A stretch of DNA of 64,000 nt from Dermatophilaceae bacterium (GCA_035689185.1 DASSLY010000010.1:13036-77035), one strand, 5' to 3'. Positions 48,288-62,860 are shown, counted from the first letter of the stretch. Program-made: numbers and translations. Notes: generated from the letters alone by a model not told the origin.

Positions 48288-49961
48288 TCAGTCGGGGGGC
48301 TCGATGACGTCGAAGCGAAGACCAGAGGTCGCCTCTCCCGCTCCCGTCTCGCGGCGCCGGGCGCGCCACACGACATACCCATTCGGGGTATAGGTGAGCC
48401 GGTCCACCCGTCTGACCCGGGTGCCGACGGCGGAAACGATGTCCTCGTCGACGGCGGTGCCCGGCTGGTGGCTCACGGTGCGGCCGCGGACACCCTCGTC
48501 GGACACCTCGCAGGCCCCGTCGGGAAGCGCGGCGAGCCGCAGCCGGCGATGACCGTCGGGGCCTGCCTCGGCCGCTTCCAGCGGGTACCAGTGGTCTGGC
48601 AGCGTGGTCCCCAGCCGGTACACAAGTGACCCGTCCGGCACCGGTGCGGGCGCCCCGCCCCCATCAACGGACGGCCGGGCGACCAGCCAGCGCCGGTAGC
48701 GATCGACCCGCTCGCCGTCCTCGTCGGTGGTTGTCAGCTCGATGAGCCAGCCCAGGTTCGCCAGCTCGTCCCGGGCGAGGACGACGTCCTCCAGCGGTGG
48801 GCCTTCCAGCGGCGGCGGCGCGCTCGGCAGCAGGACCCGCAACCCGACACCGCCGTCGGCGGCCGCGGACGAGGGCGCTTGGACCTCCCAGAGCCGGAAC
48901 CGCGACCCGGCGCCGTCGAGCCGGGCGGAGGGCAGGACCTCGGTCGTCGTGCCGAACGTGTCCACCACCGTCAACCCGGTGACCAGCACGACGCCGGGCG
49001 CGACCGGCAGCGGCACCAGGAACCAGTCGCCGGCATAGGAGTGGGCGAAGGCGACGAGCAGCTCACGGGCCGGGTCGATTCCCGCCAGCATGTCCAGGTC
49101 GACGTCGCCGTCCTCGATCGTCCAGTAGCCCGGCTCCGGCATGCCCTGGTAGCTCACCCGGGCCGGCCGCACCACGGTCACCGGGCCGGGGCTCGGCGTG
49201 GCCGGCAGCGAGGCCCGGTCGAAACAGTGCCAGTCCAGGCCGTCGCCGTCGTAGCCGGGGGCGCTCAGCTCCACCGGCTGCCCACCGAGGGCAGCGGTGC
49301 CGGTGAAGGCGTAGCCGAGCAGCAGCTCGGACCAGGCCTGCGGCGTCACGCCGCCGCCGGGCGTTCCGACCCGCCCCGTCATCCACCGCACCCAGGCCCG
49401 CGCCGGCGCATCCAGCGCCGCTCGCAGGGACGGGTCCACGCCGGGTTCGGCCGGCAGCGAGCCGTGGCCGCCGTCCGGCCCGACGGCGGCCAGCCACGCG
49501 GCATACAGGGCGACAGCGTCCGGGAGGCGCCCGTCGAATGCCGCGAGCGCGCCGGTCTCGCCGCGGGCGCCGAGCGGGTATGACGTGGCCAGGGCTGCGC
49601 GCGCGAGGCTCAGGTCCGCGTCGCCGACCCCGGCGTCGGCGGCCAGGCGGAACAGCTCGCTGGCGAGCCGGACCCGGGTCGCCGTGTCGACCAGGTCGCC
49701 TGCCGGCGCTGGCTCGGCCTCCACGAGCGGCTCCACCTGGCCCGCTGCCGGCCGACCGGCAACGGAGAGCGGCGCCTGGAGGTGGCTCATGGTGACGGTG
49801 ACCGGCGTGCCCCCGTCCTCGGCGAGCAGGCCGCCGGTCTGGAACTGCCGGGCGAGCAGCCACAACGGGTCGTGCACGCCGGCGGCGACGGCGGCCAACC
49901 GCTCCGGCTCGGTCGCCGCGGTCGACCAGGGGTGCAGGCTGGCCCCGGTGAGCGCGGTCAC
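48288..49961 (-). CDS. hypothetical protein, gene 7 of the seven-gene operon (557 aa)
   Basis: GTG 49961 overlaps the gene 6 stop (GTGA). Balanced composition, in contrast to the Arg-rich overlapping frames. Distinctive segments: 'DPLWLLARQFQTGGLLAEDGGTP', 'GMPEPGYWTIEDGDVDLDML', 'FAHSYAGDWFLVPLPV' and 'YRLGTTLPDHWYPLE'. I recognise no characterised domain. Confidence 0.75.
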   Translation of the reverse strand: MTALTGASLHPWSTAATEPERLAAVAAGVHDPLWLLARQFQTGGLLAEDGGTPVTVTMSHLQAPLSVAGRPAAGQVEPLVEAEPAPAGDLVDTATRVRLASELFRLAADAGVGDADLSLARAALATSYPLGARGETGALAAFDGRLPDAVALYAAWLAAVGPDGGHGSLPAEPGVDPSLRAALDAPARAWVRWMTGRVGTPGGGVTPQAWSELLLGYAFTGTAALGGQPVELSAPGYDGDGLDWHCFDRASLPATPSPGPVTVVRPARVSYQGMPEPGYWTIEDGDVDLDMLAGIDPARELLVAFAHSYAGDWFLVPLPVAPGVVLVTGLTVVDTFGTTTEVLPSARLDGAGSRFRLWEVQAPSSAAADGGVGLRVLLPSAPPPLEGPPLEDVVLARDELANLGWLIELTTTDEDGERVDRYRRWLVARPSVDGGGAPAPVPDGSLVYRLGTTLPDHWYPLEAAEAGPDGHRRLRLAALPDGACEVSDEGVRGRTVSHQPGTAVDEDIVSAVGTRVRRVDRLTYTPNGYVVWRARRRETGAGEATSGLRFDVIEPPD

Positions 49962-61505: not shown

Positions 61506-62860
61506 GGGAAGAGCACCCACCCCTCGTTGACCGGCTCGGCGGGGGTGGGCAGGTTGGTCTCCGTGCCGAGGATGCCGTCGAACATGGTCCGGCCGATGGC
61601 ACCGCGGATCGACTTGGGGTTGGTGACCAGCGGCCCCAGCGCGGGGGCGAAGGCGCCGCCGAGGAAGCAGCCCCACAGGTAGACCTTCACGTTGCTGGCC
61701 AACGCCAACCGGTCGAGCTTGGCGACGAAGTCGGTTTGCGTGACGACGACGGAGGCTTCCGGTTCGGCGCCCTTGGAGTTCTGGATGCCGTACTCCAGGA
61801 ACAGCGACTCGGGCGCGGAGTGTCCGACGTAGTCCAGCCGCCGGATCTTGCACTTGGCCCGGGTCACCGACGGGGCGGTGTCCCACAGCGGGGTCCGCAT
61901 GCCTTTCTTGGCGAACGCCTGGCCGGCCCAGGTGCAGTCGTCGATGTCGCCGCGCAGCATGTGGTCCTCGTCGACCAACTCGGTCATCGCCAGCCGCCGC
62001 TCACCGGTCCAGGTGCCGGTGTTGAGGTAGCCGAAGATGCTGTCGACGTCACGGACGAAGAGCACCTTGACGTAGACCCCGAGCAGCGGGGGCACGTCTC
62101 GCACCGGTGCGAACTGCCCCCACTTCGAGCCGTAGCAGATCCGGATCGGCAGGTCGGTGAGGGCGTCGACGTAGGCGTCGGGGTCGTGCATCCGCTTGGC
62201 GAACCCCCCGTCGGGCATGGCGTTGCCGGCGCTGTCGACTTCTCCCGTGGTGCGCATGAGGATCTCGTGGTCGATGTCCGGTTCGGTGCTGCCGTACACC
62301 GGCGGGGTGCTCGACGAGCCCTTCCTGGTCGGCGGCGTCTGCGGCCGCGGCGGTGCGGTGAACTGGTCGGAGGCCCGGAACTTCGGGTTGTACGGGTTGG
62401 CGTTGACGTAGGCGGAGCCGCGGTGGAGCGCCATGTTGTACGGCGACGCCTGCCAGTCGACGAGCTCCCGGTCGACCCGTTGGCCGGCGACCCTGGCCCC
62501 GTAGTAGCTCGGCAGCCAGACCATGAAGGTGAGCAGGTCGCCCCGGGCCGGCGTGATCGCCTCCGGGACCCGGCCGCGCAGCTCGACCAGCTTCACCGCG
62601 GCATACAGGAAGTTGGCCCAGTAATAGTCGTGGGTCGAGGTCGGCTCGAGCAGGGGATCACCCGGTATGACGTGGGCCGGGTCGCCGCGCAGGTACTTGG
62701 TGATGTTGGCGGGGCTGGTGTCCGCCGGGCGCGGCTCGGCGTGGTAGGTCTCGGACTGGTGCCAGTGCCCGTAGCCGTTGAAGGTGTTCGACGGCCCGCC
62801 CACGATGACGATGTGCTCGCGGGTGCGGTGCCCCCGGCCGCCCGGCTGCCCCGAGGTCAC
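61502..62860 (-). CDS. hypothetical protein, gene 1 of the seven-gene operon (452 aa)
   Basis: GTG 62860 has GAGGGGG 8-14 nt upstream. Aromatic/His-rich and less Ala-rich than genes 2-7. 'HIVIVGGPSNTFNGYGHWHQ', 'RRLDYVGHSAPESLFLEYG' and 'VKVYLWGCFLGGAFAP'. No recognised family. Confidence 0.7.
   Translation of the reverse strand: MTSGQPGGRGHRTREHIVIVGGPSNTFNGYGHWHQSETYHAEPRPADTSPANITKYLRGDPAHVIPGDPLLEPTSTHDYYWANFLYAAVKLVELRGRVPEAITPARGDLLTFMVWLPSYYGARVAGQRVDRELVDWQASPYNMALHRGSAYVNANPYNPKFRASDQFTAPPRPQTPPTRKGSSSTPPVYGSTEPDIDHEILMRTTGEVDSAGNAMPDGGFAKRMHDPDAYVDALTDLPIRICYGSKWGQFAPVRDVPPLLGVYVKVLFVRDVDSIFGYLNTGTWTGERRLAMTELVDEDHMLRGDIDDCTWAGQAFAKKGMRTPLWDTAPSVTRAKCKIRRLDYVGHSAPESLFLEYGIQNSKGAEPEASVVVTQTDFVAKLDRLALASNVKVYLWGCFLGGAFAPALGPLVTNPKSIRGAIGRTMFDGILGTETNLPTPAEPVNEGWVLFP

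Follow-up and report, generated by a model that had tools for sequence, protein, structure and literature searches.

A widespread five-component gene cassette with a polymorphic enzyme slot, represented by a seven-gene operon of a Dermatophilaceae bacterium

The stretch of DNA analysed here (referred to as the window) comprises 64,000 nucleotides of a contig from a Dermatophilaceae metagenome-assembled genome (MAG; GCA_035689185.1, DASSLY010000010.1:13036-77035). Between positions 48288 and 62860 it carries seven consecutive minus-strand genes, g1 to g7, with a combined length of 4,820 amino acids (aa). A preliminary description, made from the sequence alone, had singled out these genes as a candidate undescribed multiprotein system. 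The features of the operon are listed below in the order of transcription, with letters (A to E) for the components that the genes represent in related genomes.

61502-62860, minus strand: g1, 452 aa, third-codon-position GC content (GC3) 0.95; occupant of the A slot
58227-61505, minus strand: g2, 1092 aa; component B
60420-61505, minus strand: N-terminal region of g2 (aa 1-362), in which a variable segment comes after a short conserved leader; proposed adaptor
58428-60113, minus strand: DUF6603 domain of g2 (aa 465-1026; Pfam PF20248, E 2.6e-117)
55909-58227, minus strand: g3, 772 aa; component C
55835-55916, minus strand: 13-nt tandem array, unit GACCGAGACCACT on the coding strand (Tandem Repeats Finder: period 13, 6.6 copies, 86% matches, score 122)
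54794-55822, minus strand: g4, 342 aa, GC3 0.91; coiled-coil accessory
52128-54794, minus strand: g5, 888 aa; N-terminal half of component D
49958-52111, minus strand: g6, 717 aa; C-terminal half of component D
48288-49961, minus strand: g7, 557 aa; component E, last gene

The genes are real and tightly coupled. All seven open reading frames (ORFs) had a GC3 of 0.90-0.95 together with the expected high/low/highest pattern over the three codon positions, which supports the reading frames and lengths that had been proposed for them. Long ORFs are found on both strands because the window is GC-rich (72-79%). The possibility that overlapping plus-strand ORFs are the true genes was ruled out, as these did not have the codon-position pattern and the coding signal was on the minus strand only. 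The g1/g2 and g6/g7 junctions are GTGA overlaps, those of g2/g3 and g4/g5 are TGATG, and the 16-nt spacer between g5 and g6 includes GAGGAG. An 86-nt gap between g3 and g4 is the sole real intergenic gap in the operon. These junctions, the gap, and the 13-nt array all proved to be as first described. Each repeat unit contains a TGA, and the unit did not occur elsewhere in the window beyond chance; the array is a candidate attenuator, slippage-prone spacer, or processing site. Scans of the locus for sigma-70 promoters and intrinsic terminators gave no match, which is uninformative in an actinomycete of 75% GC, and an Rfam search of the locus revealed no riboswitch or known RNA.

The operon has a GC content of 75-79% against 68-72% in its flanks, so the earlier remark that its codon style resembles that of the neighbouring genes is only roughly true. 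The proteins encoded by g3 to g7 (48288-58227) contain just 7 lysines in 3,276 residues (0.2%), with none at all in g3 and g7, compared to an average of 1.27% in the 22 other ORFs of the window and 3.3% in g1. Homologues from the low-GC Mariniflexile are Lys-rich and the depletion is therefore lineage-specific; as a toxin hallmark it was set aside because the whole genome is Lys-poor. The three genes that were looked up in the annotation of the host contig (g7, g5, and g3) are listed as 'hypothetical protein'.

Searches of the Pfam, NCBIfam, PADLOC, and PHROGs libraries with all seven proteins gave a single significant match, namely that of g2 to DUF6603. With 392.9 bits (gathering threshold 27) over model positions 4-498 of 502, g2 is a member of PF20248, and RefSeq labels the equivalent genes of Salinigranum and Streptomyces 'DUF6603 domain-containing protein'. 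The statement in the preliminary description that these proteins have no recognised domains thus holds for the other genes, for which the libraries gave no significant match, and has to be amended for g2 (aa 465-1026), with the note that the domain is itself uncharacterised. Motif and hydropathy scans bore out that the seven proteins have no Walker A, HExxH, or NTPase (nucleoside triphosphatase) motif, no signal peptide, and no convincing transmembrane (TM) helix, and each of the peptide motifs quoted earlier was located in the gene to which it had been assigned. Sequence-profile searches against the Protein Data Bank (PDB) with component A (both g1 and a PhoD-type A protein from other loci), B, C (g3), D (g5), and E returned nothing below E 0.2.

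To place the operon among other genomes, 64 loci were found by a DUF6603 peptide pattern, with one genome per species, and the remaining components were then placed by local tblastn. With hardly an exception, the loci that were long enough to judge, about 60 in genomes of more than 10 phyla, had the genes B, C, D, and E together and in the same order, which is the outcome that had been looked for in a gene-neighbourhood check. The bacterial sources were Actinomycetota, Acidobacteriota, Chloroflexota (Anaerolineae), Verrucomicrobiota (Verrucomicrobium), Bacteroidota, Gemmatimonadota, Pseudomonadota (Alpha-, Beta-, and Gammaproteobacteria), Myxococcota (Kofleriaceae), and Symbiobacteriaceae. On a plasmid of the haloarchaeon Salinigranum marinum all five genes were present and homologous, the B-C-D-E order was kept, and D and E were annotated with a 'BGTF surface domain' and a lamin-tail domain, respectively. 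Judged by homology, the B-C-D-E order is conserved across phyla and archaea. Four examples of gene order are given below, with numbers for protein lengths in aa.

Actinoplanes: DUF6603-755-348-1010-450-709
Metagenome contigs: DUF6603-1185-1592-646
Bradyrhizobium: 836-DUF6603-1011-1516-568
Micromonospora: 804-DUF6603-1184-1237-1462-569

Tight coupling was also seen in Micromonospora, Bradyrhizobium, and Mariniflexile, with 4-nt overlaps or 2-4-nt gaps, and homologues of g3, g5, and g7 were rare and always found together. By this comparison, the block in the window is the split-gene actinobacterial form of a five-component cassette A-B-C-D-E, and its layout of seven genes, in which g5 and g6 share D between them and g4 is added, is an actinobacterial variant. 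The seven-gene unit first proposed is accordingly a conserved block, with the modification that it consists of five components: g5 and g6 are one protein elsewhere, g4 is lineage-specific, and g1 lies outside the conserved core. In an uncultured Actinomycetota MAG (L026, 1112-16577) the cassette was permuted, with D and E upstream of A-B-C, and the cassette can therefore be rearranged without losing any component. An Owenweeksia sp. MAG (L070, 15166-16737) carried, between C and D, a gene for an FG-GAP repeat protein with the C-terminal sorting domain (Por_Secre_tail) of the type IX secretion system, and through this insertion the cassette is tied, in that lineage, to a protein of the secreted, surface type.

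The core components proved to be rare. Among 5.8 billion proteins, we found 179 homologue clusters for g3 (C), 78 for g5, and 64 for g7 (E); C was always located directly after B, and E was always the final gene of the cassette. An AlphaFold2 model of g3, made with the family alignment, reached a predicted local distance difference test score (pLDDT) of 88.2 and a predicted template modelling score (pTM) of 0.82. When this whole model was compared with the PDB by Foldseek there was no match with E<=0.001, and the best one (E 0.1) was a generic Ig-like sandwich of about 85 residues. A low-confidence loop in the model (aa 459-483) corresponds to the site of large inserts in homologues, for instance of VCBS repeats. 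The model of g7, made in the same way (pLDDT 78.6, pTM 0.76), had no Foldseek match with E below 0.1 in the PDB or in BFVD, and the invariant N-terminal motif of this protein (D31, W34, Q39, Q41, and D49) falls in a stretch for which the monomer model shows disorder. For component D, most of the distant homologues of g5 were proteins of 1,400-1,540 aa that span g5 and g6, and where D is fused, as in Bradyrhizobium and Micromonospora among others, it was the C-terminal part that aligned with g6; in most lineages g5 and g6 are one protein, usually of 1,400-1,800 aa. Invariant motifs of g5 include LLPVR..T and an HAPS..HA..AAVLRSGYL-like block.

Because C and D also remained without a match in Pfam, NCBIfam, PADLOC, and PHROGs when the low-GC (37%) copy of Mariniflexile was used, the lack of matches is no composition artefact. 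Internal paralogy of C with E or of D with E was rejected as well (hhalign probability below 1%). Homologues of C, D, and E have gained VCBS, FG-GAP, Laminin_G_3, Ig-like, and lamin-tail domains as well as the haloarchaeal BGTF surface domain, a term for which nothing was found in the open-access literature searched. In Bradyrhizobium sp. AZCC 1578 (L006, 6962-9997), C has an insert (aa 549-586) with two adjacent, strongly hydrophobic TM-like segments that are absent from g3 and most other homologues. The remaining protein, g4, consists of 34% Ala and is a lineage-specific coiled-coil accessory: a gene of similar size is found at the same position in Actinoplanes (348 aa) and in L078, and g4 was detectable by tblastn only in L001 and L063. 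Its weak matches to SMC, PgrA, JetC (PADLOC, E 0.024), and a minor head protein (PHROGs, E 0.0056) were discounted as coiled-coil noise.

In contrast to the conserved core, the A slot upstream of B is polymorphic. The gene at this position is translationally coupled and belongs to at least seven unrelated families, to which singletons are added. The occupants were distributed as follows.

PhoD-like, 15 loci: metallophosphatase-type motifs conserved; PG_binding_1 domain in some
PLD (PLDc_2), 5 loci
Peptidase_M64, 3 loci
DUF2515, Nal1_C-like, and unknowns, several loci

No N- or C-terminal tag common to the A-slot proteins was visible. The PhoD-like proteins, which are the commonest family and are absent from this window, conserve the motifs GDQIYADD, DDHE.TDDW, and SGDVHYS in the alignment; their match to Pfam PhoD amounted to 33.9 bits (cut-off 27) in Caulobacter (L011) and 24 bits in Mariniflexile, over only about 30 residues in each. 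In the window the slot is taken by g1, a member of a small family with 63 representatives among 1.84 billion proteins. Its invariant residues include T76-H77-D78, D108, R131, D135, G346-H347, and W396-G397-C398, of which G346-H347 and G397-C398 were invariant across 34 homologues. Searches of Pfam, NCBIfam, and PDB profiles returned no match, and so none that would support the fold of caspase-like or CHAT-like Cys proteases, of which a His...Cys dyad is a feature. We consider g1 to be probably a Cys/His hydrolase with the cell envelope as its target. Relatives of g1 occur as fusions to OmpA-like or IPT/TIG domains, and the g1 domain also forms the C-terminus of a 1637-aa protein. After the homologues with 78% and 44% identity there is again a DUF6603-type gene, other homologues stand alone, and none was present in the 64 DUF6603 loci.

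Two further observations concern the surroundings of A. In Mariniflexile sp. AS56 (L037, 4954-6487), two small genes directly upstream of A encode proteins of 226 and 199 aa, each of which has a single TM helix at its N-terminus and, after it, a charged region that resembles a coiled coil. These proteins could be holin-like or anchoring factors, but the other loci do not conserve them. In Verrucomicrobium sp. BvORR106 (L023, 4064-9949), two tandem A genes of the M64-peptidase type precede a single DUF6603 gene.

Whereas the DUF6603 domain was conserved in all related loci, the N-terminal part of B varied together with A. Between the window and the closest genome locus (L063), where the A gene is of the PLD type, homology in B started only at about residue 363, which marks a recombination boundary inside B. 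When loci were compared within bins of equal DUF6603-domain similarity, the first ~430 residues of B (its N-terminal region) were 2-10x more similar where the A family was the same than where it differed (in bits per residue, 0.46 vs 0.12 for one bin and 1.39 vs 0.12 for another), as calculated from few and non-independent pairs. In addition, a second DUF6603 gene was found upstream of a single C-D-E in four loci (L010, L017, L024, and L048), and in L017 the order A1-B1-A2-B2-C was resolved. The duplication of A in Verrucomicrobium is of another kind than these (A-B)x2 loci. The pattern seen in B is the behaviour that would be expected if an A enzyme and its cognate B adaptor segment swap together onto a shared core.

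The genomic context of the cassette was then considered for links to mobile elements. The copy in the window is flanked by acyltransferase, epimerase, transglutaminase-like, HD/LuxR, and desaturase genes, and in line with what had been noted before, no tRNA, flanking direct repeat, integrase, or transposase was found near it. Two ORFs just downstream of the operon, at 42028-44010 (minus strand, 660 aa, GC3 0.91) and 45097-46929 (plus strand, 610 aa, GC3 0.84), had no Pfam match with E<=0.001. Even a 78%-identical relative has a different genomic context, and no neighbouring gene beyond A-E was conserved across loci. Among 150 ORFs that flank 48 of the loci, the commonest Pfam families were metabolic or regulatory (ADH, LysR, IclR, ABC, and MFS), and there was no enrichment of mobile genes. 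Copies on large plasmids were found in Streptomyces, Nocardia, Rhizobium, and Paraburkholderia, and on four haloarchaeal megaplasmids. The cassette is widespread and horizontally spread.

The plasmid copies, an IS1595 transposase or integrase near some copies, and one copy in a record labelled as phage could suggest that the cassette is a mobile-element module or a phage-derived particle, such as the host-recognition or entry apparatus of a plasmid, an integrative and conjugative element, or a tailless particle. We regard this as highly improbable, since most copies are chromosomal with ordinary flanks, none of 2.9 million viral contigs in IMG/VR contained a relative, and PHROGs gave no match for six of the seven proteins and only the weak coiled-coil one for g4. 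Capsid, portal, terminase, sheath, tube, baseplate, and spike genes were absent from the window flanks, as were contractile-system genes from the flanks of the 48 related loci. The phage record itself (L076/L074, GenBank MT835531.1, 'UNVERIFIED: Bacteriophage sp.') is a 40-kb contig of 75% GC from a human faecal sample, which has C, D, and E, preceded by the last part of B, at one of its ends and also contains serine-recombinase-like, LysR-like, and SARP-like ORFs. Its phage origin was rejected, because by its GC content and its LysR- and SARP-like ORFs it looks like mislabelled chromosomal or plasmid DNA of an actinomycete. On plasmid NZ_CP107814.1 of Streptomyces longwoodensis (L075, 106-3423), a classical polymorphic toxin with an RHS repeat-associated core domain, divergent from the cassette, is encoded ~1.7 kb upstream of A and ~6.4 kb upstream of the DUF6603 gene, and a P4-type primase and a transposase are found downstream.

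A second way to explain a swappable enzyme on a conserved core is anti-phage defence by abortive infection, in which B-E would serve as a sensor or scaffold that releases or activates the suicide effector A upon infection. This is the main rival explanation. Effector swapping on a conserved core is typical of defence systems, which commonly employ effectors of the PLD, protease, and phosphoesterase kinds. The A slot carries enzymes of the PLD, protease, and phosphatase type, the cassette is patchily distributed, horizontally spread, and also present on plasmids, all of its proteins are without export signals and thus cytoplasmic by default, and an immunity gene is missing, as expected of a suicide effector. 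Nevertheless, we consider the explanation unlikely. In PADLOC-DB v2, none of the 5,027 models matched the seven proteins beyond the JetC coiled-coil noise of g4, and about 4,800 aa of protein contain no NTPase, nuclease-sensor, or nucleic-acid-binding domain. The 150 ORFs flanking the 48 loci did not form defence islands; there were about 10 sporadic PADLOC matches, spread over 10 models with 1-2 ORFs each. Furthermore, the peptidoglycan-binding domains on A and the VCBS, LamG, lamin-tail, and surface domains on C, D, and E would be of little use in the cytoplasm. With respect to known defence systems, the cassette resembles CBASS (cyclic-oligonucleotide-based anti-phage signalling), Avs, and Lamassu in having a conserved core, swapping of PLD-, protease-, and phosphoesterase-type effectors, and a patchy distribution, but differs from them in that it has extracellular-type domains and is without a PADLOC match, an NTPase or cyclase sensor, or a defence island.

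The same peptidoglycan-binding domains on the A enzymes, together with the coiled-coil scaffolds, the fixed stoichiometry that is implied by operon coupling, and the position of the window copy among housekeeping genes without mobile elements, would also fit a complex that the cell directs at itself. Such a complex would have no role in conflict; for instance, as a scaffold of the surface, cell wall, or cytoskeleton, it would bring a wall- or lipid-modifying enzyme into position for the structure or remodelling of the cell's own envelope. We consider this improbable, more so than a defence function. The cassette is found very rarely and in a patchy distribution, with 64-179 clusters for each component in the 5.8 billion proteins; its context differs even in the 78%-identical relative, it has copies on plasmids, and haloarchaea, although devoid of peptidoglycan, carry it as well. 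Moreover, a slot that is filled by unrelated activities fits a diversifying conflict better than a fixed physiological task. Of the structural, toxin, and conflict-system options that had been put forward for the operon, the polymorphic A slot thus points to those of conflict and toxin and away from a housekeeping cytoskeletal particle.

The reading that we favour, albeit tentatively and as one that may well turn out otherwise, is that of an ATP-independent multiprotein complex with which the producer attacks other cells by means of a swappable envelope-degrading enzyme. In such a mechanism, B, C, D, and E would build a large particle without a need for ATP, whose coiled-coil struts or stalks would be supplied by g4 together with g5 and g6 through their Ala-rich ends. 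The A enzyme (g1 in this operon) would dock via the variable N-terminal third of B and would be deployed outside the producer, against other cells, with lysis or an unrecognised pathway as options for its export. As the same core is found in monoderm, diderm, and archaeal hosts, the particle would be soluble or released rather than an envelope-spanning secretion machine. Action outside the cytoplasm is suggested by the A enzymes with peptidoglycan-binding domains, the OmpA and TIG fusions among g1 relatives, and the surface-type domains on C, D, and E. That the proteins physically assemble, that A docks on B, and that the complex acts outside the cell and is toxic is in each case what we infer. 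The wider proposition would be that of an undescribed class of ATP-independent, multi-subunit effector-delivery particles that occurs in at least 10 bacterial phyla and in haloarchaea, has folds without solved relatives, and exchanges enzyme and adaptor as a unit; we put this forward as a possibility, and with slightly more reserve.

Several points weigh against this deployment of an enzyme against other cells. The operon revealed no signal peptide, TM segment, or secretion gene, and thus no recognised export route; nor were conserved secretion genes present near the cassette across loci. There was also no candidate immunity gene beside A, either in the window, where the stop of A overlaps the start of B and therefore leaves no room for one in between, or consistently elsewhere. 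Such an absence is unusual for antibacterial toxins. No small ORF beside A was conserved across the loci, which is a weak test as it covered ORFs of >=90 aa and immunity genes are diverse. The enzymatic nature of g1 has the invariant His347/Cys398 pattern as its sole basis, with no support from Pfam or the PDB, and the co-variation of A and B was derived from few pairs that are not independent of each other. The structure models covered g3 and g7, and since Foldseek was run on whole multi-domain models it may have missed similarity at the level of domains. Finally, the assembly, the A-B docking, and the toxicity were deduced from sequence only.

With this in mind, the cassette was compared with known delivery systems. 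Polymorphic toxin systems consist of a conserved delivery part and toxin or enzyme modules that are exchanged by recombination (Zhang et al. 2012, PMC3482391). The cassette shows such module exchange, with at least seven unrelated A families on a conserved B-C-D-E, but an adjacent immunity gene was not found among ORFs of >=90 aa (a weak test), nor was a recognised trafficking route such as Sec or the type V, VI, or VII secretion systems (T5SS, T6SS, T7SS). The closest in logic are the Tc (ABC) toxins. These are encoded by operons of giant proteins without signal peptides or an ATPase, combine a conserved apparatus with a hypervariable enzymatic payload, have accreted receptor-binding domains on conserved parts, and occur in Gram-positive and Gram-negative hosts. 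The cassette likewise has giant proteins, no signal peptide or ATPase, a variable enzyme, and accreted domains. In contrast to Tc toxins, however, its payload is a separate upstream gene plus an adaptor region instead of the C-terminal tip of an RHS cocoon protein, and the cassette reaches archaea. None of the seven proteins had a Pfam match (E<=0.1) to VRP1, neuraminidase-like, TcA_TcB_BD, SpvB, TcdB, or RHS, and in the PDB there was no sequence match for B, C, D, and E and no fold match for g3 and g7, although Tc structures are present there.

In the VgrG/PAAR modules of the T6SS and of extracellular contractile injection systems (eCIS), an effector and its cognate adaptor swap together, and tandem modules share one core. 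The cassette is alike in that A and the B segment appear to swap together and that tandem A-B pairs are found on one C-D-E. Even so, the sheath, tube, baseplate, spike, and AAA+ ATPase of T6SS, eCIS, and tailocins are absent in or near the cassette according to Pfam and PHROGs, and of the many contractile-system proteins with solved structures none matched the fold of the g3 or g7 model. Umbrella particles of Streptomyces (UmbA/UmbB/UmbC) reportedly combine an Ala-rich coiled-coil stalk with a polymorphic toxin. The cassette shares with these particles the actinobacterial occurrence, the Ala-rich coiled coils, and the polymorphic enzyme; it differs in that Pfam revealed no trypsin-like lectin or ALF-repeat proteins, the variable enzyme is separate, and the range extends far beyond Streptomyces.

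The cassette, its polymorphic slot, and at least two of its subunit folds are undescribed in everything that was searched, including the open-access literature. DUF6603 or PF20248 was not mentioned there, and among the matches listed for polymorphic toxins, delivery, and haloarchaeal megaplasmids nothing was relevant. PF20248 is a named family with no assigned function, and the family descriptions that were found make no mention of its fixed association with C-D-E and with an upstream enzyme that varies. As profile and structure searches placed none of the proteins in a characterised machine, the view of the operon as an undescribed multiprotein system gained support; none of the three tests that had been named beforehand as able to refute this view spoke against it.

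If the favoured reading is true, the ~5,000 aa of conserved protein in each cassette, from Actinomycetota to Bacteroidota and in haloarchaea, would form an undescribed machine and a new way of deploying enzymes against other cells regardless of their envelope type. It would stand as a new 'toxin complex' architecture beside Tc toxins, contractile injection systems, and umbrella particles, and would provide a function for DUF6603. For structural biology it would offer several new large folds, of which two confident models already have no PDB neighbour, and the enzyme with its adaptor segment would be a natural 'plug-in' that could be engineered. Carriers that can be cultured include Streptomyces longwoodensis NBC 00538, Micromonospora siamensis, Caulobacter radicis 695, Mariniflexile sp. 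AS56, and Salinigranum marinum ZS-10. Should the cassette instead be a defence or envelope system, it would still represent a well-defined and testable new set of gene families.

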